Source: an uncultured SAR86 cluster bacterium (lineage in GTDB: Bacteria > Pseudomonadota > Gammaproteobacteria > Magnimaribacterales > D2472). Taken from it: a stretch of DNA of 64,000 nt. Of the stretch, positions 1,025 through 38,889 are shown piece by piece. The DNA lies in contig CABXPU010000003.1 in assembly GCA_902514105.1 (NCBI GenBank), forward strand, positions 621-64,620, given 5' to 3'. Each line of letters begins with the position of its first letter. Positions within the stretch are counted from its first letter, which is position 1. The position numbers and the translations under genes were made by a program. The notes under the pieces are model-generated. The model saw nothing but the letters and a program-made list of their open reading frames with translations, did no database searches and was not told the origin of the DNA.

Positions 1025-1906
1025 CTATTGATAGAAAGAATTTTTTTTAATACTACAAAAGAGAGATGAAGTTTTTATTTTAAAATCTGAATAATGGGAA
1101 GCCAAAAAATGCATAGTTTTATTTTGTGATCTTAGATCAGTGACAAGTGCATGATCTACCATAAATTTTTTATATTCTTTTGTTCTTCCAGAAAATATAT
1201 ATTCAACTGAATTTGCCCAACTGATCATGGGAACATTTCCAGTAATTGGAATTAAACAAGAATGAACCTCACTTTCAAATGTTAATGGGAAAGAAATATA
1301 TACAGGTTCAATTATATTTATTTTATCTGCAATGAATTCTAGATCTTTAGGACTTGAACAGTCTGAATTGGAGAAAATGCTTTTAGGTAAATAAAATGCA
1401 GTATTAAATCCTTCTTCATTTAATATTTTTAAAACTGCAAGATTTCTAGATTCTATAAGAAATTGATCAATGCTTAGTGAAGATTCTTCCTTAATTGCGT
1501 TAATATTTGTTACTAGATCATTAACATTTGATGAGTCAAGATTCTTAACATCTAACCAATAATCATGTTCTTTTGGATCATCTAGTAGGCTAATTAAATT
1601 TCGAAAAGAAAAATTAATCGAAATATGTTCAGGGAAATGAAAAATATCTAAATTATTCCTATCGATATATATATCAACTTCAAAATTTTTATAATATTTA
1701 GCATATTCTACTAGTCTGGTTGGTGAATTTGTTGAATGGACATAAATATTAGAAGGTAAGTCTCTTTGCCGAAGAAAGTTATGAAGTTTAATATCAGTCT
1801 CTTTCAGTTCGCAGCTATAAGGGTTATATGGTAAATATTTAATAAATAGAAAAAAAATAACTATAAAAAAAATTAAAGTTATTAAATATTTATTAATTCT
1901 TTTCAT
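1025..1906 (-). CDS. Membrane-anchored hypothetical protein, probable PLC-like/GDPD-type phosphodiesterase domain
   Basis: N-terminal hydrophobic anchor; the HSTNS...FEVDI...FH...WLDVKN...IES pattern resembles PLC-like phosphodiesterase TIM barrels. Confidence 0.5.
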   Translation of the reverse strand: MKRINKYLITLIFFIVIFFLFIKYLPYNPYSCELKETDIKLHNFLRQRDLPSNIYVHSTNSPTRLVEYAKYYKNFEVDIYIDRNNLDIFHFPEHISINFSFRNLISLLDDPKEHDYWLDVKNLDSSNVNDLVTNINAIKEESSLSIDQFLIESRNLAVLKILNEEGFNTAFYLPKSIFSNSDCSSPKDLEFIADKINIIEPVYISFPLTFESEVHSCLIPITGNVPMISWANSVEYIFSGRTKEYKKFMVDHALVTDLRSQNKTMHFLASHYSDFKIKTSSLFCSIKKNSFYQ

Positions 1907-1911
1907 CCTAA

Positions 1912-3510
1912 TTATTTCGGTCTTGATTCATTAAAATACAAATCTTGCATAAGATTATATTCTTTTAATTCTCCATAGGCATTAAGTACTTTGTGAGCAT
2001 CTTTCTTGTCTATATATTTGTATTCGTATCCAAGAGAATAAAATATAAAATCTGCTGTAAATTGCGTATTGAAAACTTTTTTTCGATCAAAATTAAATGA
2101 ATCAAAGAAAAATTTACTATGTTTTGCTTCTTCAGTTGTGTCATATATAAAAAAAGGAACCTTATACTGATCTTTTGAGGAAATGGAAAGTCCGTGACCA
2201 TGTCCAACAACCTCACCATGATCTGATAAGTAAACTAATAATATTTTTTTATCAGAAAGACTTATCATCTCAATAAGATTATTAAGGAGCTTATCAGTTT
2301 TCATAATAGTTGCATCATATTCTGATGTTTTACTCCCCAAAGCATTCATATGTTTGAAATCTTGCTCGAAGTAATTTTCATATTTTAAATGTGATCCAAA
2401 TAAATGAAGAATAGTAAAATTTTTTTTATCGCTATCAAGGTCTTTTATGATTTGTTCAAAAATATAGTCATCATTACTATCGAAGATGAATTTATTAGAT
2501 GATCGTGCAATTTTTGAGGTCATAAAATTTGTTAATCCATGCTGTGGATGTGAAGAAAACCAAGAGGTATCAAAACCCTTTAATTTTGCTGCCGTGATAA
2601 TACTCATGTAATTCTTCTTTAAAGAAGAATTTGATTTAGATAATGTTAAAATTTTCTTATGCGAATAACGAGTTATAGGAGAAACCGATATTGCATCATC
2701 AAGCCAGATCAGATTTGGATTTTTCTTTTTTAAATCTAAAAGCGGGCTTGTTGGATATTCGTATCCATAAAAAGAATAATGATTTTTTGAGGCTGACTCA
2801 CCAAGTATTAAATATACAGAATCATATACTGAAGTTATTCCTAAGTTAATATTCTCAGGCAGTTTTGTAATTTCAGGCTGATTGATCACAGAAACTTCTT
2901 CTAGATATCTAAAAGTAAGAGTGATTGGATGAAATATTGACCCTCGATAGAGTAAACCAAATGCCTGAACTGGACTTTCTTTAAACCTAGAAGAAAAGTT
3001 TTTGTTATCACTTAAATCAAAAAATAGAAATGGACATATTAAAACAAAGACAAAACTGACAAAAAGCATCTCCTTTTTAAAATAATTAGCACTATATTTA
3101 ATTGTAGAAAAAATAAATAAAAAACTTATTAGTGCTGAAATAAAAAAATTTAAAATACCGAATTGTCTTAAAAAATTTAAAGCTTCGACTTGGCCGGTTT
3201 CAATCAATGATGAAAATGCACCAATACTTAAAATTCCATCATAAACTAGTGAAGATGATAAGTTTATAAAAAATAAAAGGCCTAGTAATAGCCTTGTAAT
3301 AATACCTAATTTTCCTTGAATAGAGAGAAACATAAACAAGACAAAATAAGACAACAAAATATTATAAAAATAGAGCTTACTATGTAACAACATATAATCA
3401 TTAAAGAAATTTATAGCAAACGGTATAAAGAATATAATAGATGAAATTATTAATTTATAACGATAAAAAGTTTGAACAAAAATGTTTATGAAAGAATTAA
3501 ATATACTCAT
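1912..3510 (-). CDS. Phosphoethanolamine transferase, EptA/CptA family
   Basis: About 5 N-terminal TM segments; LILGESAS..HYSFYGY..PTSP, catalytic-Thr region SPITRYS, HLFGSH, YLSDHGE. Confidence 0.85.
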   Translation of the reverse strand: MSIFNSFINIFVQTFYRYKLIISSIIFFIPFAINFFNDYMLLHSKLYFYNILLSYFVLFMFLSIQGKLGIITRLLLGLLFFINLSSSLVYDGILSIGAFSSLIETGQVEALNFLRQFGILNFFISALISFLFIFSTIKYSANYFKKEMLFVSFVFVLICPFLFFDLSDNKNFSSRFKESPVQAFGLLYRGSIFHPITLTFRYLEEVSVINQPEITKLPENINLGITSVYDSVYLILGESASKNHYSFYGYEYPTSPLLDLKKKNPNLIWLDDAISVSPITRYSHKKILTLSKSNSSLKKNYMSIITAAKLKGFDTSWFSSHPQHGLTNFMTSKIARSSNKFIFDSNDDYIFEQIIKDLDSDKKNFTILHLFGSHLKYENYFEQDFKHMNALGSKTSEYDATIMKTDKLLNNLIEMISLSDKKILLVYLSDHGEVVGHGHGLSISSKDQYKVPFFIYDTTEEAKHSKFFFDSFNFDRKKVFNTQFTADFIFYSLGYEYKYIDKKDAHKVLNAYGELKEYNLMQDLYFNESRPK

Positions 3511-3597
3511 TAAAATAGATCCATTAAATAAAAATATTTGAAGCTAGGTAAGATTATATAGTTACAGGTTAACGATAGTTGATTTGGGCTCTTGAAA

Positions 3598-4002
3598 TCA
3601 ATAAAGCAAACTTAATGGCACTGATATTTCTTTTATGGGAGGATAAAATAAATGCCGAGTAGTTTTATATGGAAACTTCTTGTTGGCATTAATCATCGAA
3701 AAAACATCAGCAATTTCAATATTATAGTCGCTTCGCCAAGAAGTTAATACTACACCGCTTTTATAGTAATCCATAAGCAAGCATGGAACTCTTACAAATT
3801 CCAATAGTTTAGCCGCTTTTAGACGATGGTGGCCATCCATAATTGCTAGCGAAGAGCGCTCAATTGCAATTGGGACTGTCCAAAAACCCAATTCAAGAAT
3901 CGCTTCTGCAAGACGAGCAGCGGCAGCAGCATCATGCTCTTCAGTTTCTTGTATTCGTTCCATGCTTATCAGTTCCAAATGACGCATATAAATCCTGACC
4001 AA
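3598..4002 (-). CDS. Small ParB/Srx-fold protein of the SerK/SbnI free-serine-kinase type
   Basis: ETEEH, PIAI, MDGHHR, LTSW and C-terminal FPYKTTRH; no HTH domain. TTG start, with an alternative ATG 15 nt downstream. Confidence 0.7.
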   Translation of the reverse strand: MVRIYMRHLELISMERIQETEEHDAAAAARLAEAILELGFWTVPIAIERSSLAIMDGHHRLKAAKLLEFVRVPCLLMDYYKSGVVLTSWRSDYNIEIADVFSMINANKKFPYKTTRHLFYPPIKEISVPLSLLY

Positions 4003-4016
4003 ATAGATTGAATAAA

Positions 4017-5810
4017 CTAAGACAAGGCTTTAAGGCTTGATATTAAAGCTTCATTGTCACGAGTATCTCTTACTGCAACACGAATATAATCACCATCTAC
4101 ACTACCTTTTCCTGAACAGTCTTTAATGAGGATAGAATATTTGTTACAAAGATCTGAAGCCAATAGACCAGCATCTTTTCCAACTACTTTACAAAAAATA
4201 TAATTCGCTTGCGATTCATACGGTTTCAAATAATCTATTTCTTGCAAATCTTTCATTAACTGGTTTCGGGCTTGTATAAGTTTTATGCAGCCTGCCTGAT
4301 ACTCAGACTCGTACTTACCAATAATCTGCATATAAAATTCAGCGATCGAGTTGATATTCCATACAGGTATGTGAGACTTTACACTTTTTACAAGATCTAT
4401 ATTTGAGCTTGCTAAAACTCCTAACCTGAGCCCACCAACTCCATAACTCTTTCCAATGCTTTTAATGACAACCAAATTTGGAAACCGTTCTAAGTCAGAG
4501 GTATTGAGTACGGAAGAATCAAAGCCATTTTCAGCAAAATCAAGAAATGACTCATCTAATACCAGATACTTACCCTTAGTATGTAAATCTTCTAATATAT
4601 CTATTATTTCTTGATAAGGGATGAAATTGCCTGAGGGATTATCAGGATTAATCAGTATGACTCCATCATTTTCATTAGCTAAAGAGATAACATCATCTTT
4701 TCCGTATCTAAAGCCCTCGTTCTTTGGAACTCTAAGATCTATATCTTTAAATCTAGCCGTATATTCTTCAAAAGTAGGGCCATATAAACCAAATCTCCCT
4801 TTTAGAGATTTCGTTATAATTTCGATTAATTCAGCAGCGCCATTACCAAGAACAATATGAGTGGTAGGAATATCAAACATTTTGGCCGCAAGCATTGCTT
4901 GAACCTTCTCTCCTGAAGGATATGACTGTACAAGACGATTCAGACTATACTTAAGCTCATTACTTAAGGACTCAGGTGGAAAGAAGGGGTTGACCAGATA
5001 ACAAAAGTCTTTAAGGTGGTTAAATCGCCAAAAACCACCATATCTTTGTGAAAGTAGTTTATAACGTTCCTCCGGTGCTGCAAAAATTAAATTAGCAGTG
5101 TCAAGATCTTGAGCATCATCTACCTCATACCATTTTTCACCATTAAGAGGCAGGGCTTTTAAATGTTTCTCATCTAAATTAACAATTACTTTAAGCACTT
5201 GTTCATAATACTCATTATTACCAAGAGCCTTTGCATAAGCCTCCAGGAAAGGCACATAAAAATTGTTTAGGAATTGCTTTGAAAACTTGTAAATATTTAC
5301 AGTTTTATAATATTCATCTATATCAATATAATTAAAATCGGCTTTAGAAATAAAATGACTTATCGAGAAATCATCGCTTATTTTTACAACAGTGCCATCC
5401 ATCCAGGTTTTATATTTATCTACCAAGGCTAAATCTTCAGTTGGATTATTAATAATCATTTCAAATACTCTGGGCTCGAATATCAAATCACTTTCAATCA
5501 ATATAGTGTCGTCTTCGCACAGATGGTCTTTGGCTAAGAAAACAGAGTAGATATTATTAGTAGTAGCATAGTCATTATTTTCCACATAGATGATATCAAC
5601 CCCCTTATAACTTTCACCCAGGAAGTTTTTTAGCTTTTCCTTCTGATACCCAACAACTAAAATAATTCTGTCTATTGGGTGCTTTACAGCGATATCTAGG
5701 CATCGTTCTATCAGAGTCTTTCCATCCACCTCAACCATTGCTTTGGTTTTATGGGCAGTCTCCGTCCCTAGACGCTTCCCCATTCCCGCTGCTGGTATCA
5801 ATATTTGCAT
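4017..5810 (-). CDS. Fusion of a LicC-like (phosphocholine/phosphoethanolamine) cytidylyltransferase and a CobD/HisC-like PLP enzyme
   Basis: N-terminal half: PAAGMGKRLG, TKAMVEV, TNNIYS, ESDLIF, WYEVDD. C-terminal half: DFCYLVNP, GNGAAELI, PTFEEY, NPDNPSG, DESFLDF, KSIGKSYGVGGLRLG (PLP lysine). Confidence 0.88.
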   Translation of the reverse strand: MQILIPAAGMGKRLGTETAHKTKAMVEVDGKTLIERCLDIAVKHPIDRIILVVGYQKEKLKNFLGESYKGVDIIYVENNDYATTNNIYSVFLAKDHLCEDDTILIESDLIFEPRVFEMIINNPTEDLALVDKYKTWMDGTVVKISDDFSISHFISKADFNYIDIDEYYKTVNIYKFSKQFLNNFYVPFLEAYAKALGNNEYYEQVLKVIVNLDEKHLKALPLNGEKWYEVDDAQDLDTANLIFAAPEERYKLLSQRYGGFWRFNHLKDFCYLVNPFFPPESLSNELKYSLNRLVQSYPSGEKVQAMLAAKMFDIPTTHIVLGNGAAELIEIITKSLKGRFGLYGPTFEEYTARFKDIDLRVPKNEGFRYGKDDVISLANENDGVILINPDNPSGNFIPYQEIIDILEDLHTKGKYLVLDESFLDFAENGFDSSVLNTSDLERFPNLVVIKSIGKSYGVGGLRLGVLASSNIDLVKSVKSHIPVWNINSIAEFYMQIIGKYESEYQAGCIKLIQARNQLMKDLQEIDYLKPYESQANYIFCKVVGKDAGLLASDLCNKYSILIKDCSGKGSVDGDYIRVAVRDTRDNEALISSLKALS

Positions 5811-7079: not shown

Positions 7080-8063
7080 TTAAAACAAATCAGTAGCTCT
7101 TTTCACTATGTCATTGGTGGAAATATAATAATCCTTTTCAAGGACTCGCGAAGTTGGTGCTGGCGCATCTGGCAAAGCCATCCTAACAGGTGGTATTAAC
7201 AAAGAATCAACAGGTAATTTTTCTAGAACTTTAGCAATAATCTCTGCTGAAAAACCGCCTGATAGCCAACCAGAGTCAATAACTAAAAATCTTCTAGTCT
7301 TTTTAACAGAGTTAATAATTACATCAGCATCAAGTGGATTTAATATTCTTATATCAATAACTTCTGCCGATATATTTTTACTATCAAGTTGTTTTGCAGC
7401 CTCTCTTGCAAGCAGGGAAGTATGGCCCGATGAAACAATAGTAATATCTGAGCCATCTTGAGTAATCATTGGTCTTTGTGATAATAAATCAAGTTCAACT
7501 ACTGGAGATAAATCATCCTCCTGCTCGTATAACCATCTATCATCAATGTACATAACTGGATCTTTACATAAAACAGAGGCTATCAATAAATCTCGGGCAT
7601 CTGAGACAGTTGACGGCATAACAACACGAAGACCGGGAACGTGGGCAAACCATGCATGCAACGCTTGTGAGTGTTGTGCGCCCTGCTCACCTCCACGATT
7701 AATAATACATCTAATTGTCGCTCCAGGATGTGCCTGCCCACCAAACATGTGAGACCATTTAGCAGCTTGATTAACTATGGGGTCAATTGCATAAAGCATA
7801 AAATCCATACGCGGATGAACTACAATAGGTTTCATTCCAGCAAGCGATGCTCCAACTGCAGCACCTGTGCACGCGGATTCTGAAACTGGAGTATCAATAA
7901 TACGCTTAATGCCAAACTTTTTATCTAAATCTGTCATTGAGTTTCCCACATACCAAGGACTCCATAGCCCTTGTCCAATTACAAAAACCTCAGGATATTT
8001 TTCTAATAAATATTCAAACGCTGCCAAGATAGCAGTACCGTAATTATGTTTTTTAACTGTCAT
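7080..8063 (-). CDS. TPP-dependent E1-beta-like (transketolase C-terminal) subunit
   Basis: IIDTPVSE, GAQHSQ, VPGLRVVMP, DPVMYID. Start set at ATG 8063 (MTVKK), overlapping the alpha-subunit stop. Confidence 0.88.
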   Translation of the reverse strand: MTVKKHNYGTAILAAFEYLLEKYPEVFVIGQGLWSPWYVGNSMTDLDKKFGIKRIIDTPVSESACTGAAVGASLAGMKPIVVHPRMDFMLYAIDPIVNQAAKWSHMFGGQAHPGATIRCIINRGGEQGAQHSQALHAWFAHVPGLRVVMPSTVSDARDLLIASVLCKDPVMYIDDRWLYEQEDDLSPVVELDLLSQRPMITQDGSDITIVSSGHTSLLAREAAKQLDSKNISAEVIDIRILNPLDADVIINSVKKTRRFLVIDSGWLSGGFSAEIIAKVLEKLPVDSLLIPPVRMALPDAPAPTSRVLEKDYYISTNDIVKRATDLF

Positions 8064-9102
8064 TTTTAGATTCCGCATATACATATTTTAAAGTTGCATC
8101 AGATGACGGATAAGGATCACTCATTGCCTTATCCCAGGCAGATTTCATACTTTCTTCAAGTTCATTATTTAAATCCACTTCTTGATTTTGAGACCACATT
8201 TCAGCATCAATCATTGCTTTAGACAAACGCTTAATAGGATCTCTTTTTCTCCAATTTTCAATATCATCGAGAGACCTCTCAACACCCACATCCACATCAT
8301 CTCTCCAATCAACATGCCCATACCATCGGTAAGTAACCAACTCTATTAGCGCAGGACCTTTTCCAGAACGAATATCATCAATTAATTCTTTAGAGGCTTT
8401 AGCAATAGCAACAACATCATTCCCATCTACTAATTTGTAGGGGATATCATTAGCAACTGCAAATCTTGAAATCATATCGCTTGGCTGTCTAAGTGAAATA
8501 TTCATATGGCTTGCAAATAAATTATTTTCAATCACAAATAACATTGGAGCATCTTGAATCTTTGCTAAGTTAAATGACTCATGAACTACACCCTCTTCTA
8601 CTGCCCCATCTCCAATATATGCTAGACCTATATGATCTGTTTCTTGGAGTTTAGCAGCTATTGCCGCACCTAAGGCTAAAGCCACCGTACCCGCAACAAT
8701 AGGTACCGATCCATAAAAACCATTTTGTTGATCGTATAGATGCATTGACCCTCCCATGCCTTTGGAAAATCCAGTTTCTTTACCCAACACTTCTGCAAAT
8801 AATCTATAAAAATCAGGATTTAACGCAAGCAAATGAGAATGAGAACGATGCGCACCAAAAATGTAATCCGTACTTTTTAGGTTTTGCGAGATGCCGACTG
8901 CAATTGCTTCTTGACCTACACCCAGATGAACCGGGCCACCAATTAATCCATTCTTTCTACCAAGGGCCAAATGCTGTTCAGCCTTTCTAATTAGAAGCAT
9001 TGATTTCAACATAGGTTTTAATGAGCCAATATCTTGATTAGCGATTGAAACCGCACCATGACACTTTTCTGGATTAGATAGGTCTTTTAAATCATTTTTC
9101 AT
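8053..9102 (-). CDS. TPP-dependent E1-alpha-like subunit
   Basis: HLGVGQEA, HRSH, GMGGSMH, TPP motif GDGAVEEG...ENN, TYRWYGH. Confidence 0.9.
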   Translation of the reverse strand: MKNDLKDLSNPEKCHGAVSIANQDIGSLKPMLKSMLLIRKAEQHLALGRKNGLIGGPVHLGVGQEAIAVGISQNLKSTDYIFGAHRSHSHLLALNPDFYRLFAEVLGKETGFSKGMGGSMHLYDQQNGFYGSVPIVAGTVALALGAAIAAKLQETDHIGLAYIGDGAVEEGVVHESFNLAKIQDAPMLFVIENNLFASHMNISLRQPSDMISRFAVANDIPYKLVDGNDVVAIAKASKELIDDIRSGKGPALIELVTYRWYGHVDWRDDVDVGVERSLDDIENWRKRDPIKRLSKAMIDAEMWSQNQEVDLNNELEESMKSAWDKAMSDPYPSSDATLKYVYAESKNDS

Positions 9103-9134
9103 TTATATTTCCAGGTAAAATTAGTAAAGTTTAA

Positions 9135-10013
9135 CTAAGAAATTGAAGCCCAATTATCTTCAATTTGCTTAGGATTTTTTATCCCAAGAATAACAGAATG
9201 TACATTTTTTTGCATTAATGGCCATTTAATTGCATATTGCAATAAACTAATATTTTTTTTAGCCGCTTCAATTTTTAAATTTTCAATTTGATCTAATGCA
9301 TGAAGATACTGGCTACCTTTGAATAAAGGTAATCTTGAGCGTCTATCATTTATCGGAAATATAGAATTTTTATCATACTTTCCAGTAAGTAGGCCATTTG
9401 CTAATGCGTTATAAGCAATGATTTTAATCTCATTCGTAAAACAAATATCTGAAATATTTTTATTTATTGGCCTGTCAAGAATATTTACTGGCATCTGCAG
9501 ATAATCTACTTGAGAAACGCTACAAGCTTGCTGTACTTGCTTTGAAGAAAAATTAGAACAACCTATAGATTTTATCTTACCTTCATCCTTAAGTTTCATA
9601 AGCTCACTAAAAGTTTCTTTAATTAATATATTGTCATCTGGCCAGTGCACAAAAAAAATGGGTAATACTTCAAGGCGCAATCTTTTTAAACTACTTTCTA
9701 CATCCCTCCTTATAGCTTTGGGTGAGCTATCTCGAGTCACAATGGCACGCGTAGATGTCTCATTATTTTTCCATGAAAGCCCACCTTTGGTTGCAATAAT
9801 AACATCATGCCTTTGCTCTCCTAAAATTTTTGATAGCCTCTCTTCAGATAAGCCGAGGCCGTAAATCCCAGCTGTATCGAAAAAATTTATACCTAAATCA
9901 AGAGATTTATGAATTGCATTTTTTATATCATCAATTTCAACATCACCCCAATCAGTTCCTCCAAGCGGCTCACAGCCGAAACAAATTGGAGATAGTTTTG
10001 TTTCTATTGTCAT
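9135..10013 (-). CDS. Aldo/keto reductase
   Basis: GINFFDTAGIYGLGLSE, ATKGG, SLKRL, HWPD, GKIKSIGCSNF, LANGLLTGKY. Confidence 0.92.
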   Translation of the reverse strand: MTIETKLSPICFGCEPLGGTDWGDVEIDDIKNAIHKSLDLGINFFDTAGIYGLGLSEERLSKILGEQRHDVIIATKGGLSWKNNETSTRAIVTRDSSPKAIRRDVESSLKRLRLEVLPIFFVHWPDDNILIKETFSELMKLKDEGKIKSIGCSNFSSKQVQQACSVSQVDYLQMPVNILDRPINKNISDICFTNEIKIIAYNALANGLLTGKYDKNSIFPINDRRSRLPLFKGSQYLHALDQIENLKIEAAKKNISLLQYAIKWPLMQKNVHSVILGIKNPKQIEDNWASIS

Positions 10014-25219: not shown

Positions 25220-25699
25220 TTAAAAGATAAGATCTTTCTCTGCTAAGTTAATTATTCTTGTAGAACCAAGAATAGATAGAAGGACATCAATTCGCTTATT
25301 AGACGGAAGTGAGCAAATTTTTACTATACTTCCCTTTAAAGATCCCTTTGAAATAGTTGCATCTTGGCCAATTTGTATTAATGAAGCTACTGGATCTATT
25401 TTTGATGTTTTTTCAGCAATTCGCATTGCTTTAATGTCTTCATGAGAAATAAAAGAGATATTATCTCCAAATGTTATGATATTTTTTATGCCCCTTGTGT
25501 ATTTAAGAGTTGAGTAATTTTTAATATCGGTATTAATAAAAATGTATCCAGGGAATAAGGCCTCCTCTTTAGGAATAGAGTCTTTCTTTTTTATTGTTAT
25601 TTTCGGTAAATAAAAGGGGAAATCTTGATTTAATAGGTTACTTTCTACCCGCTTAACTTCGTTAATTTTATATAAAGCGATAAGCCATTTTTTTTTCAT
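25220..25699 (-). CDS. rfaH: RfaH/NusG-family transcription antiterminator
   Basis: W at the N-terminus, NLLNQ...YLP, EALFPGYIF, TRGIKNIITFG, KOW-like IGQDATISKGSLKG. Confidence 0.85.
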   Translation of the reverse strand: MKKKWLIALYKINEVKRVESNLLNQDFPFYLPKITIKKKDSIPKEEALFPGYIFINTDIKNYSTLKYTRGIKNIITFGDNISFISHEDIKAMRIAEKTSKIDPVASLIQIGQDATISKGSLKGSIVKICSLPSNKRIDVLLSILGSTRIINLAEKDLIF

Positions 25700-34780: not shown

Positions 34781-35634
34781 AACTTAGAATTCTTGTAATC
34801 TTTTATAAGTGTTAAGAAGTTTTGTAATGCCTCATCATCTCCATCTTCTATTAATTTTTTAATTTCATCTAAACTATCCTTGTATGCATCAATAGAGCTT
34901 GAAATGCTTTCCTTGTTACTTAGAAAAATATCTGTCCACATTTTTGGATCTGATCCAGCAATTCTTACAAAATCTCTTAAGCCTCCTGCAGAAAAAGTTG
35001 TTATATTGCTATTCGGATTTTTCATTATGCTATCTAAAACAGCATATGAAATAACGTGAGGCAGATGGCTGGCATATGAAATGATTTCATCGTGCTTCAT
35101 AGAATCTATATTAATAACATCTGCCCCTAAACTTTTCCATAAATTAGTTACTGAGGTCAAACAGTGATTTTTTGATTCTGTTATTTCTGTAATAAGTACT
35201 TTTTTATTATTAAACATGGCTTCATCGGCATAGCCGACGCCAGTATTATGGGATCCAGCCATGGGGTGTGACAAAATAATATTAGATGGTGATGAGTAGT
35301 TATCTGCCAAATAATTATGAATCAATAATTTTGCACTAGCAGTATCTGTAATAGCTATATCTGAATTAAATAAACTATTAATGGAATCATATACTTTTAA
35401 GCTCTCAATAACCGGAACAGCTATTATGATTATATCTACCTCGTTTGGTTCTAAATTATTTATATCACCTAGTGCGTTAATCTTATGATCAATAATTCCA
35501 ACATCTTGAGCTAAATCAAGAGCAGAAGGGTTGTGATCATATGCGCTGATTTTTATATCTGGATTTTGATTTTTTAGAGCCTTAGCAACAGAGCCACCCA
35601 TTAATCCAAGACCAATAATGACAAGTGAATTCAT
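34777..35634 (-). CDS. tyrA: Prephenate dehydrogenase
   Basis: GLGLMGGS, HPMAGS, HD...SHLPH, RIAGSDPKMWTDI. Confidence 0.93.
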   Translation of the reverse strand: MNSLVIIGLGLMGGSVAKALKNQNPDIKISAYDHNPSALDLAQDVGIIDHKINALGDINNLEPNEVDIIIIAVPVIESLKVYDSINSLFNSDIAITDTASAKLLIHNYLADNYSSPSNIILSHPMAGSHNTGVGYADEAMFNNKKVLITEITESKNHCLTSVTNLWKSLGADVINIDSMKHDEIISYASHLPHVISYAVLDSIMKNPNSNITTFSAGGLRDFVRIAGSDPKMWTDIFLSNKESISSSIDAYKDSLDEIKKLIEDGDDEALQNFLTLIKDYKNSKF

Positions 35635-36728
35635 AATAATTCTCCTATATTATCTAAAAAATAATCATTCTCCTCTTTGGTGCCAATAGTCATTCGGATA
35701 TATTCAGGCATATCATAAAGAGCCATTGGTCTAACAATAACTCCTCTTTTCATTAGCCTAATAAATATATCCTGAGCATCAAATGCTCCTTTGAAAGTAA
35801 TAAAATTACCCTGAGAATCTATACAATCCATACCAATAGACTTTAATGCAAAATTGACCCTTTGTCGCTCAGATGAGTTTAATTCTTTACTCTTTTGGAT
35901 GTGATCTTCATCATGAATAGCAGCTATTGCAGCTTTTTGAGCAATAAAATTTACATTGAAAGGTTGGCGAACTTTATTTAGAACACTGCAAAGTTCTTCA
36001 CTACATAAGCCATAACCAACCCTTAAACTTGCAATTCCATGAATTTTAGAAAAAGTTTTAGTTATTAGAATATTATTATATTCATTCAATAATTCTTGAA
36101 CGTTAATATAATCAACTGATTCAACATACTCAAAATAAGCAAGATCAAGAACTACAAGGACTGAAGATGGAATCTCTTGCATCATACTTTTAAATTCATA
36201 TTGGGAGTTAAATGTTCCTGTAGGATTATTTGGATTTGCAACAAAAATAATTCTTGTATTTTCTGAAAGATAATCTTTAAAACTTCCTAAATCGTGACTC
36301 CAATTCAACATTGGAACCTCTATAACTTTTGAGCCACATGATTGAGAAATAATTTTATAGACAGCAAAGGCATGCTTTGACATTAATGCACTAGTGTTGT
36401 TATTTAAAAATGCTCTTGCAGCGATCTCTATAATTTCATTGGAGCCATTTCCTATAATAATTTGAGAGGAATGCACTTTCTCTAATTCACCAATTGAATC
36501 TTTAAGCTCTTTAGCATCTCCATCTGGATAGAGATGCAAATCATTACTTAATAGATTTAAAACCTCTTTAGCTTTTGGAGATGCCCCTAAAGGATTTTCA
36601 TTACTTGCCAATTTCACAACTTTCTTTGGGCCATATTCTGCAATTACATCTTCTATAGGCCTTCCTGGCTCATAAGGATGAAGATCTTCTAAACCTTTAT
36701 TTGCAAAAGTGAGAATTGAATTGCTCAT
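35631..36728 (-). CDS. hisC: Histidinol-phosphate aminotransferase
   Basis: KLASNENPLG, GNGSNE, NPNNPTG, TFSKIHG..LRVGY; pheA-hisC-tyrA order. Confidence 0.93.
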   Translation of the reverse strand: MSNSILTFANKGLEDLHPYEPGRPIEDVIAEYGPKKVVKLASNENPLGASPKAKEVLNLLSNDLHLYPDGDAKELKDSIGELEKVHSSQIIIGNGSNEIIEIAARAFLNNNTSALMSKHAFAVYKIISQSCGSKVIEVPMLNWSHDLGSFKDYLSENTRIIFVANPNNPTGTFNSQYEFKSMMQEIPSSVLVVLDLAYFEYVESVDYINVQELLNEYNNILITKTFSKIHGIASLRVGYGLCSEELCSVLNKVRQPFNVNFIAQKAAIAAIHDEDHIQKSKELNSSERQRVNFALKSIGMDCIDSQGNFITFKGAFDAQDIFIRLMKRGVIVRPMALYDMPEYIRMTIGTKEENDYFLDNIGELL

Positions 36729-37812: not shown

Positions 37813-38889
37813 TCAACCATTCTTATTTTCAAAGTCTTTCATGAAATCAATTAAATCATGGACCCCCTCAATAGGCATTGCATTATATATGCTAGCGCGC
37901 ATTCCTCCTAAAGATCTATGGCCTTGTATGTTTAAAAGGCCTCTTTTTTGAGCTTCATTTATAAATAAAGAATCAAGATCTTTGTTGAAGAGTGTAAATG
38001 GAATATTCATAATTGATCTATCTGTTTTCCTTACAGGGTTAGAGAAATAATCAGAATTATCAATAAAATTGTATAAAGTTTGTGCCTTTAAGTGATTCTT
38101 TTGCTTCATTTTTTCAAGACCACCTTCTCTTTTAAGCCACTTAAATACTTTTCCTGCTATGTACCATGAAAATGTTGGAGGCGTGTTAAGCATTGAATCA
38201 TTTTCTGAGTGTTTGCTATAACGAAAGATATTTGGGATATTTGTATTCTCAAGCTCAAACATTGATTTTTTAATAATAACTACAGTTAATCCAGCGGGCC
38301 CGATATTCTTTTGAGCTCCAGCATAAATTAGATCAAATTTAGAGACATCTATTGGTTCGCTTAGTATTACTGAAGACATATCAGCAATAACTTTAGAATC
38401 TATTAAAGGTGGGCTATGGATTGCTACGCCATGAATTGTCTCATTGGGAACATAATGAAAATACTGAGCTTTAGAATCAATGTTCCAATCATCAAAATTA
38501 GGAATATGGTTATAATTTTCTTCCTCTGATGATGCTACAACATTTATGTTTGATAATCTTGAGGCTTCTGAGATAGCTTTTTTAGACCAAGCGCCAGTTA
38601 ATAGATAATCTGCTGAATCTTCTTTAGAGGAAAAATTCATTGGCACCATTGAAAATTGATGAGTTGCACCACCCTGAAGAAATAAAACATCATAGTCATC
38701 TGGAATGAAAAGAAGATCAATAAAATCTTGCTTAGCAGAATGAGCAATCTCTTTGAAAATTGAGGACCTATGACTCATTTCCATAATAGACATCCCTGAA
38801 TTATTCCAATCAAGCAATTCTGCTTTTACTTCTTTTAAAACTTCTTCTGGAATTGCTGCGGGTCCAGCACAAAAATTTCTGACTCTCAT
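37813..38889 (-). CDS. serC: Phosphoserine aminotransferase
   Basis: NFCAGPA, EMSHRS, QGGA, GAQKNIGPAG, NTPP, GHRSLGGMRASIYNA. Confidence 0.97.
   Translation of the reverse strand: MRVRNFCAGPAAIPEEVLKEVKAELLDWNNSGMSIMEMSHRSSIFKEIAHSAKQDFIDLLFIPDDYDVLFLQGGATHQFSMVPMNFSSKEDSADYLLTGAWSKKAISEASRLSNINVVASSEEENYNHIPNFDDWNIDSKAQYFHYVPNETIHGVAIHSPPLIDSKVIADMSSVILSEPIDVSKFDLIYAGAQKNIGPAGLTVVIIKKSMFELENTNIPNIFRYSKHSENDSMLNTPPTFSWYIAGKVFKWLKREGGLEKMKQKNHLKAQTLYNFIDNSDYFSNPVRKTDRSIMNIPFTLFNKDLDSLFINEAQKRGLLNIQGHRSLGGMRASIYNAMPIEGVHDLIDFMKDFENKNG

Follow-up and report, generated by a model that had tools for sequence, protein, structure and literature searches.

Phosphoethanolamine on bacterial surface glycans is normally attributed to EptA-type enzymes that use phosphatidylethanolamine as donor. 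The single chemistries of a route via cytidine diphosphate (CDP)-ethanolamine each have precedent, in SerK and SbnI, in Cj1436, in LicC and PntC, in LicD and TagF, and in the CDP-alcohol transferases. SerK (Thermococcus kodakarensis TK0378) and SbnI (Staphylococcus) are free L-serine kinases of the ParB/Srx fold, and SbnI reportedly generates O-phospho-L-serine (Verstraete et al. 2018). Cj1436 is described as decarboxylating serine phosphate to ethanolamine phosphate (PMC12409886), and LicC makes CDP-ethanolamine only poorly, with a reported 2700-fold preference for phosphocholine (PMC6697681, Table 1). The DNA analysed here, a stretch of 64,000 nucleotides from an uncultured SAR86 cluster bacterium (contig CABXPU010000003.1; hereafter the window), encodes a fusion of a LicC/PntC-like domain with a CobD-like pyridoxal phosphate (PLP) domain, followed by a small SerK/SbnI-like protein, an EptA/CptA-like protein and a barrel protein related to glycerophosphodiester phosphodiesterases and phospholipase C (GDPD/PLC-like) (Table 1). 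With a probability of roughly 0.55, these genes represent two modules: a cytoplasmic pair that would lead from serine to CDP-ethanolamine, and an EptA-like/GDPD/PLC-like unit that would act at the outer face of the membrane with a phospholipid as donor.

All four co-oriented open reading frames (ORFs) are present on the minus strand where the initial annotation had placed them, and the domain calls agree. Its interpretation, a single pathway served by all four genes, was retained in part. The two-gene core is upheld by the conservation of the pair, a fold match to SerK and SbnI only, the SbnA-type gene clusters and the nearest solved relatives, while the extension to four genes is not supported, in view of 0 of 160 loci, the G+C content and the separate domain fusions.

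In the proposed route, the protein of 129 amino acids would phosphorylate L-serine to O-phospho-L-serine, as SerK and SbnI do, and the PLP domain of the fusion would convert O-phosphoserine to phosphoethanolamine, as Cj1436 does. The N-terminal domain of the fusion would then form CDP-ethanolamine from phosphoethanolamine and cytidine triphosphate (CTP). In a last step, a transferase would attach the phosphoethanolamine group to a sugar within the O-antigen or capsule unit that the surrounding island specifies; candidates in relatives are the LIC12162-family, CDP-alcohol-phosphotransferase-like, LicD or TagF-like genes that adjoin the pair.

The pairing of the fusion and the small gene recurs in 54 of 80 loci and is not a matter of chance. 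These loci were kept from a metagenome scan with an alignment of eight close small-protein sequences, which returned 151 relatives; in the 54 kinase-centred loci concerned, the small gene is immediately preceded by the fusion, at a distance of 6–76 nucleotides. The co-occurrence of kinase and fusion, proposed with the initial annotation as a neighbourhood check, is found. Where the small protein is 48–71% identical to that of the window (52 loci, L087–L138), the fusion is adjacent in all but one, which ends at a contig edge; three more distant loci (L142, L145 and L153) also carry the pair. A second sample consisted of 80 fusion-centred genome loci from Bacteroidales, Clostridia, spirochaetes, Akkermansia and others, with fusions 47–63% identical. 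In a tree of 115 fusions, comprising that of the window, 34 complete pair-linked fusions and the 80 of the genome sample, a single clade with a support of 1.0 unites all 35 that are pair-linked, the sole kinase-less member being L004. Because the pair-linked fusions form one clade, the kinase was probably recruited once, and adjacency was kept while these fusions diverged to 49–82% identity. Searches of the genomes of 40 relatives returned only two weak matches to the small gene (E 0.0025 and 0.006), a near-absence that marks the island as strain-variable. The fusion family has at least 7999 homologues and is carried by at least 589 species genomes; with 55–58% identity, it occurs in Proteus, Providencia, Photorhabdus, Vibrio and Photobacterium.

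The N-terminal domain of the fusion (about residues 1–245) is predicted to be a LicC/PntC-like cytidylyltransferase. It matches NTP_transf_3 (PF12804) at residues 4–122 with 37.6 bits, exceeding the cut-off of 27, and IspD with 33.5 bits, likewise above the cut-off. The isolated domain has seven matches in the PDB, all of them nucleotidyltransferases and six of them cytidylyltransferases or the PntC fusion: LicC (1jyk, E 1e-12), the PntC fusion (6pd1, E 6e-10, second best), IPCT (2xme and 4mnd), 4jd0 and glucose-1-phosphate cytidylyltransferase (1tzf). The seventh is GlmU (9dqf, E 4e-4). The GxGxR...K signature is kept, with AAGMGKRLG...K23 invariant in 12 sequences, and E106, invariant in 12 diverse members, aligns with E104 of PntC and with an Asp of LicC. 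In PntC, E104 contacts the primary amine of aminoethylphosphonate, and LicC is described as having the smaller Asp for the bulkier choline (Rice et al., PMC6697681). The correspondence of E106 to a residue that touches a free primary amine would suit phosphoethanolamine as the substrate.

The same residue bears on the order of the two reactions. The N-terminal domain might instead make CDP-serine first, which the PLP domain would then decarboxylate to CDP-ethanolamine. FrbH decarboxylates a substrate bound to cytidine monophosphate (CMP), and a nucleotidyltransferase followed by a CobD-like PLP enzyme is also the domain order of FrbH. FrbH is moreover named as a related cytidylyltransferase (PMC6697681). 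The stand-alone enzymes Cj1436 and CobD act on the free phospho-amino acid, however, and the alignment of E106 suits phosphoethanolamine. The FrbH-like order is considered unlikely. The resemblance of the N-terminal domain to PntC and the alignment of E106 with E104 would equally agree with a phosphonate route, in which the PLP domain converts phosphonoalanine to 2-aminoethylphosphonate and the N-terminal domain activates it to CMP-aminoethylphosphonate, as PntC does. This is highly improbable, as it gives the serine kinase no role; no gene of the phosphoenolpyruvate (PEP) mutase family was found in the source assembly (956 kb, 54 contigs, 68% complete), nor any PEP mutase among the neighbours scanned with Pfam.

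The C-terminal domain of the fusion (about residues 260–597) has the signature of a fold-type I PLP enzyme (Aminotran_1_2 at residues 302–592, 76.9 bits). Its nearest solved relatives and its kinase partner suggest that this CobD-like enzyme is a phosphoserine decarboxylase. The best PDB matches are 6oux, entitled 'threonine phosphate decarboxylase-like' (E 7e-34), 3ftb and CobD (1lc5, E 2e-25), and the Schiff-base lysine in KSIGK aligns with that of 1lc5 and 6oux; we take 6oux to be the serine-phosphate decarboxylase of Sulfurospirillum multivorans. A real hisC gene scoring 330 bits with the HisC model lies elsewhere in the window, and the PLP domain is therefore an extra paralogue. The initial annotation had held the same and had also recognised housekeeping hisC and serC as separate genes, both of which score above their model cut-offs.

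Two other substrates have to be weighed for the PLP domain. Among NCBIfam models, the domain scores best with that of CobD, the threonine-phosphate decarboxylase (TIGR01140, 179.3 bits), and CobD structures are among the top PDB matches, as would be expected if the small protein phosphorylated L-threonine and the PLP domain formed (R)-1-aminopropan-2-yl phosphate for a final product CDP-aminopropanol. This route is very unlikely. The domain stays below the CobD cut-off, its best PDB match, 6oux, is taken to be a serine-phosphate decarboxylase, and homologues of the small protein adjoin SbnA-like enzymes, whose substrate is phosphoserine. In the account given in PMC5120207, SerK phosphorylates serine and not threonine or homoserine. 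Matches to the HisC model (TIGR01141, 135.7 bits) and to many HisC structures raise the further option of an aminotransferase acting on dihydroxyacetone phosphate, with serinol phosphate as the intermediate and CDP-serinol as the product, while the small protein would serve, for example, in nucleotide binding or regulation. Cj1437 is described as making serinol phosphate (PMC12409886). The PLP domain scores higher against decarboxylases than against HisC, and an aminotransferase would not account for the close association with a SerK/SbnI-like protein in which the SerK-aligned motifs are retained; this option is a shade less credible still than that of threonine. All three alternatives, via threonine, serinol or a phosphonate, are weaker than the phosphoserine route.

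The small protein is filed as SerK/SbnI-like, rather than as a member of either family, and is predicted from its modelled fold and conserved motifs to be a free L-serine kinase. Its AlphaFold2 model has a predicted local distance difference test (pLDDT) value of 95.9, and the Foldseek ranks 1–9 are occupied by SerK and SbnI only, with query-based TM-scores of 0.82–0.87, as against at most 0.51 for ParB, Noc, PadC and sulfiredoxin. The SerK model NF053625 is matched at E 7e-10, and the match to SbnI is weak. Invariant in 37 small-protein sequences are E16 in an N-terminal TEE motif, W36, P39, DGHHR (residues 51–55), P106, K108, T110 and H112, the last four belonging to a C-terminal P-x-K-T-T-R-H motif (residues 106–112). 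Both DGHHR and KTTRH, invariant or nearly so in the 37 members, align with archaeal SerK chains in the PDB. KTTRH corresponds to the end of the 242-residue SerK chain, and about 100 residues of the second SerK subdomain are thus missing from the small protein. Judged by profile-match ranges, E16 would fall near positions 28–30 of the SerK model, and the titles of PDB entries for E30A and E30Q mutants give E30 as the catalytic Glu of SerK. No longer fused forms of the small protein were found in the homologue search, which is weak evidence. The reading frame most likely starts at ATG 3987, which is preceded by AGGA 7 nucleotides upstream and gives 129 amino acids, the length of nearly all 86 homologues, rather than at TTG 4002, which would give 134. 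The gap to the fusion, earlier put at 14 nucleotides, is accordingly revised to 29.

The more distant cousins of the small protein occur next to other phosphoserine chemistry. In 25 of the 80 kinase-centred loci there is no fusion, the small protein is about 40% identical, and the surroundings are mostly siderophore clusters. By tblastn, an SbnA-like PALP enzyme together with an SbnH-like decarboxylase is encoded in 14 of these loci. An SbnG-like aldolase occurs in 16, a TonB-dependent receptor in 15 and an octopine-dehydrogenase-like gene in 13, and 19 loci have one or more of these genes; Pfam confirms siderophore-cluster families on the members scanned. The layout is staphyloferrin-B-like, with the small-protein homologues in the place of SbnI, and SbnA consumes phosphoserine. 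Within the clusters L140–L162, the genes for SbnA-, SbnG- and SbnH-like proteins and the TonB receptor are accompanied by an octopine-dehydrogenase-like gene and not by an SbnB of the ornithine-cyclodeaminase type. A half-size SbnI would be new for staphyloferrin-B-like clusters.

A second type of putative serine kinase is found in the Lachnospiraceae locus L079, in which a DUF1015 gene lies directly downstream of the fusion; DUF1015 proteins have been proposed as serine kinases (GapMind 2026, PMC13759103). That putative serine kinases of two kinds adjoin the fusion, and that the small kinase also adjoins another user of phosphoserine, points to phosphoserine as the substrate of the fusion. 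Of the comparative arguments available so far for assigning this substrate to the fusion family, the kinase partner is the strongest.

The genes around the pair include several that could use a CDP-alcohol. In marine pair loci, the usual order is a CDP-alcohol-phosphotransferase-like gene (about 280 amino acids), the fusion, the small kinase and a gene for a protein of 586–594 amino acids. The latter is a LIC12162-family transferase according to NCBIfam (TIGR04331, 411–455 bits, cut-off 225), with which the protein atlas agrees; Pfam gave no useful match for this family, even at E 1. Among the 36 pair loci that extend for at least 2 kb downstream, 27 have it after the pair, and 15 of the 31 loci with room carry the CDP-alcohol-phosphotransferase-like gene immediately upstream of the fusion. 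An example of the LIC12162-family gene is found at L091:7495–9255, and there are 33 other loci. A downstream gene of 587 amino acids had been considered as a divergent sulfatase; BLASTP showed no similarity to the EptA-like protein, and it belongs to the LIC12162 family instead. The donor substrate of the LIC12162 family may be given by the context of the pair.

In the genome loci, 68 genes lie directly downstream of the fusion on the same strand, among them 25 octopine-dehydrogenase-like and 18 ornithine-cyclodeaminase-like genes, three TagF-like genes, two CDP-alcohol phosphotransferases, two of sulfatase type (L072 and L078), one LicD and one DUF1015 gene. When the 80 loci are taken over their whole length, tblastn finds LicD in 35, TagF-like genes in 6 and a dehydrogenase of one or the other type in 49. 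The transferase-type neighbours fit a CDP-activated phospho-alcohol as the predicted product.

Gut and rumen Bacteroidales and Clostridia (L005–L082) have an octopine-dehydrogenase-like or ornithine-cyclodeaminase-like gene after the fusion, together accounting for 43 of the 68 downstream genes. These dehydrogenase partners suggest that the head group is of an opine type, N-carboxyalkylated as in N-carboxyethyl-ethanolamine phosphate. O-antigens of Proteus are described as containing both ethanolamine phosphate and N-[(R)-1-carboxyethyl]ethanolamine phosphate (PMC9630907).

In the source genome, three CDP-alcohol phosphotransferase genes are present, resembling pgsA (in the window, adjoining uvrC), a second PgsA-like gene and pssA, and none lies beside the pair. 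The caveat of the initial annotation that LicD and a dedicated CDP-alcohol phosphotransferase are absent thus holds for this genome at its 68% completeness. The search for pssA and psd that it had suggested located psd next to a pssA-like gene on a different contig, and phosphatidylethanolamine, the usual EptA donor, should therefore be available.

The 532-residue protein encoded downstream of the pair is predicted to be an EptA/CptA-like membrane phosphotransferase and only a distant relative of the known ones. It has a Pfam Sulfatase match of 106 bits and hydrophobic segments within residues 18–166, scores 81–83 bits with the EptA/CptA models, whose cut-offs are 404–561, and finds EptC (5zzu, E 1e-14) as its best PDB match. 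It retains GES, GSH and SDHGE, as well as a Thr that aligns with the nucleophile region of 4kav. The 293-residue protein, encoded 5 nucleotides from the EptA-like gene, has one N-terminal membrane helix and 381 homologues; no Pfam or NCBIfam match was obtained, with Pfam even at E 1, and two homologues weakly touch Menorin (PF10223, PLC-like clan) with 35.5 and 25.1 bits. Its AlphaFold2 model (pLDDT 86.5) is a TIM barrel, for which the top Foldseek matches are glycerophosphodiester phosphodiesterases (E about 1e-7, TM-score 0.44–0.50 by query and 0.5–0.6 by target). The structural matches include B. subtilis GlpQ, the staphylococcal lysophosphatidylglycerol phospholipase D and the C-terminal domain of phage K gp155, and E76, D78, H90, D119, K121 and E152 are invariant in the family. 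The label 'PLC-like' first given to this protein is therefore sound at the level of the superfamily. A Sulfatase domain precedes the 293-residue-type domain in 9 of 10 homologues scanned (at least 390 amino acids), and the two genes constitute a unit that is found elsewhere as one continuous polypeptide. We know of no description of a GDPD/PLC-like protein as an EptA partner. The catalytic domains of EptA-type enzymes lie on the periplasmic side, and CDP-ethanolamine is not expected there. The EptA-like and GDPD/PLC-like proteins are likely a separate module at the outer face of the inner membrane, supplied by a phospholipid donor.

Alternatively, all four genes could serve one pathway, in which the EptA-like enzyme and a PLC-like helper would transfer phosphoethanolamine from the CDP-ethanolamine made by the pair, directly or via a lipid intermediate. 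The genes are adjacent and co-oriented, and no terminator is predicted between the two modules; the EptA-like gene occupies the position at which relatives have the LIC12162-family transferase, and sulfatase-domain proteins follow the fusion in 2 of the 68 downstream genes (L072 and L078). However, the EptA-like and 293-residue genes occur in none of the 80 kinase-centred and none of the 80 fusion-centred loci. As EptA-like, 293-residue and ParB-like queries had 0 matches in the fusion-centred loci (tblastn, E 1e-3), the four-gene arrangement is not general. The G+C content steps from about 0.35 in the fusion and kinase genes to 0.25–0.29 in the EptA-like and 293-residue genes at about position 3500 of the window, with a change in AT skew, which would agree with a mosaic island, although in AT-rich genomes membrane proteins generally lean further towards AT in any case. 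Together with the periplasmic site of EptA-type catalysis, the supply of its usual donor by pssA and psd, and the association of the 293-residue domain with sulfatase-type domains independently of the fusion, these observations make a common pathway quite unlikely.

Several findings weigh against the proposed division into a serine-derived CDP-ethanolamine pair and a separate outer-face module. The pair is confined to one fusion clade, so that the 54 loci are kin and not independent events, and the small gene was found in 0 of the 80 fusion-centred genome loci (tblastn, E 1e-3). The small protein reaches only 38.5 bits with the SerK model NF053625 (cut-off 380) and 15.8 bits with the SbnI model NF033589 (cut-off 350), and its 129 amino acids are half the length of SerK (SerK and SbnI have about 240–254). 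A SerK-like protein is described in a PNAS 2025 survey as binding CTP rather than ATP (PMC12704722). The 179.3 bits of the PLP domain lie below the CobD TIGR01140 cut-off of 290.55. With serC in the window and a fragment of a ThrH-like phosphoserine phosphatase in the genome (163 bits, above 133), phosphoserine may be available without a kinase; a clear serA was not found in the 68%-complete genome, the highest-scoring 2-hydroxyacid dehydrogenase reaching 108 bits (cut-off 454). The last step is also affected. Single-query tblastn detected no candidate transferase in 20 of the 54 pair loci, many of which are short and several of which span 8–14 kb, and, in an equally single-query and coarse count, in 34 of the 80 genome loci; this count misses some, since L145 has LicD and L072 a Sulfatase gene by Pfam. 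In the source genome, 68% complete, no LicD, TagF-like or LIC12162-family gene was found.

The four genes are the closing end of a Wzx/Wzy-type polysaccharide island that extends from about 24747 (Wzz-like) to 1025 and contains TviB/TviC-like sugar-nucleotide enzymes, a flippase, a polymerase, acetyltransferases, GT4 glycosyltransferases, an initiating sugar-phosphate transferase and GalE. Beyond the island follow core genes in the order gyrA-serC-pheA-hisC-tyrA-aroA-cmk-rpsA, which is typical of Gammaproteobacteria. The genomes of relatives measure 0.7–1.8 Mb. At the opposite flank, a pdxH-like gene, with 133 bits against the pdxH cut-off of 180, lies 26 nucleotides downstream of the 293-residue gene on the same strand and probably marks the core-genome side. 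Near the other edge, an ORF of 294 amino acids matches only positions 76–304 of the 413-position nucleotide-sugar dehydrogenase model and may be a gene remnant.

Within the island, a thiamine pyrophosphate (TPP)-dependent pair resembling the alpha and beta subunits of pyruvate dehydrogenase E1, together with an aldo-keto reductase, stands between the initiating transferase and galE and suggests an unusual branched or acylated sugar. A sulfatase-fold protein of 516 amino acids has neither a membrane segment nor an obvious signal sequence nor the CxPxR motif; speculatively, it is a soluble enzyme of the alkaline phosphatase superfamily and a candidate cytoplasmic phosphotransferase. A further protein of 549 amino acids belongs to the GINT1_N family (glucosamine inositolphosphorylceramide transferase 1, N-terminal domain), its N-terminal part being weakly formyltransferase-like.

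Table 1. Features of the window discussed in the text, with positions counted from its first nucleotide
Feature	Position	Strand	Basis or remark
Fusion gene, 597 amino acids	5810–4017	minus	ORF list and Pfam, NCBIfam and PDB matches
SerK/SbnI-like small gene, 129 amino acids	3987–3598	minus	ATG start read from the sequence
EptA/CptA-like gene, 532 amino acids	3510–1912	minus	Pfam Sulfatase and N-terminal hydrophobic helices
GDPD/PLC-like barrel gene, 293 amino acids	1906–1025	minus	Predicted structure and homologue fusions
pdxH-like pyridoxamine-phosphate oxidase gene	402–998	minus	Probable core-genome flank of the island
E1-like alpha/beta pair and aldo-keto reductase	7080–10013		
Sulfatase-fold protein gene, 516 amino acids	18154–19704		
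GINT1_N-family protein gene, 549 amino acids	20836–22485		
RfaH-like gene	25220–25699		Near the Wzz-like end of the island
Possible dehydrogenase remnant, 294 amino acids	26046–26930		
Housekeeping hisC	35631–36728		HisC model, 330 bits (cut-off 276.55)
Housekeeping serC	37813–38889		533.6 bits (cut-off 253)

A wider proposal, to which even odds seem appropriate, is that a lipid-independent CDP-ethanolamine route operates in marine bacteria and, in a kinase-free form, in hundreds of gut, rumen and enteric species. In this proposal, the 129-residue protein would be the smallest serine kinase known, the fused enzyme would both decarboxylate and activate with CTP, and LIC12162-family, CDP-alcohol-phosphotransferase-like, LicD or TagF-like proteins would carry out the transfer to glycans, with N-carboxyethyl-phosphoethanolamine formed where an opine-dehydrogenase partner is present. 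If true, serine-derived CDP-ethanolamine of the cytoplasm would constitute a second, Kennedy-like source of phosphoethanolamine, the fusion family of at least 589 species genomes and the LIC12162 O-antigen 'transferases' would each be assigned a function, and a minimal serine kinase would be defined. It would also provide a genetic handle on zwitterionic and opine-type glycan decorations (phosphoethanolamine and its N-carboxyethyl derivative), which affect immune recognition and phage adsorption. The kinase-linked fusion clade, the siderophore-cluster cousins, and the LIC12162 and CDP-alcohol-phosphotransferase-like partners are new here. No description of the route, the fused family or the half-size kinase was found in the open full-text literature, a coverage that leaves out most subscription journals.

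Compared with SerK and SbnI, the small protein shares the core of the fold and the alignment of DGHHR and KTTRH, and its distant homologues take the position of SbnI in siderophore clusters. It differs in its length of 129 amino acids, in scores far below the family cut-offs, and in being paired with a fusion predicted to form a CDP-alcohol, instead of serving cysteine or siderophore synthesis. The PLP domain has the CobD-like fold-type I architecture of Cj1436 from the Campylobacter jejuni capsule locus and of 6oux, and its predicted reaction is that of Cj1436. The latter two enzymes stand alone and feed an amide ligase or a cobamide linker, whereas here the domain is fused to a cytidylyltransferase and its product would be nucleotide-activated.

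PntC-AEPT (Treponema denticola Tde1415, 6pd1) and FrbH of the FR-900098 pathway likewise combine a LicC-like cytidylyltransferase with a PLP enzyme by which the aminoalkyl substrate of the former is made or processed. Those fusions belong to phosphonate clusters containing ppm, and the PLP part of PntC-AEPT is a class V aminotransferase. The fusion described here has a CobD-like PLP domain of class I/II and a SerK-like partner, and no ppm gene was found in the 68%-complete genome. In the case of IPCT/DIPPS, an inositol-phosphate cytidylyltransferase accompanied by a CDP-alcohol phosphotransferase, the likeness lies in the matches of the N-terminal domain to IPCT structures and models and in the CDP-alcohol-phosphotransferase-like gene upstream of the fusion in marine relatives; IPCT/DIPPS act on another substrate and lack a PLP domain, and the genes are separate here. 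With EptA, EptC and CptA, the 532-residue protein has the architecture and the aligned catalytic residues in common, but it scores about 82 bits against cut-offs of 404–561 and is paired with a GDPD/PLC-like protein. The Lic system (LicA, LicC and LicD) and the eukaryotic Kennedy pathway resemble the proposed route in the sequence of kinase, cytidylyltransferase and transfer of the phospho-alcohol from a CDP donor. In contrast to both, choline or ethanolamine would not be taken up; the kinase is of an unrelated fold, and the head group would come de novo from serine, decarboxylated after its phosphorylation.

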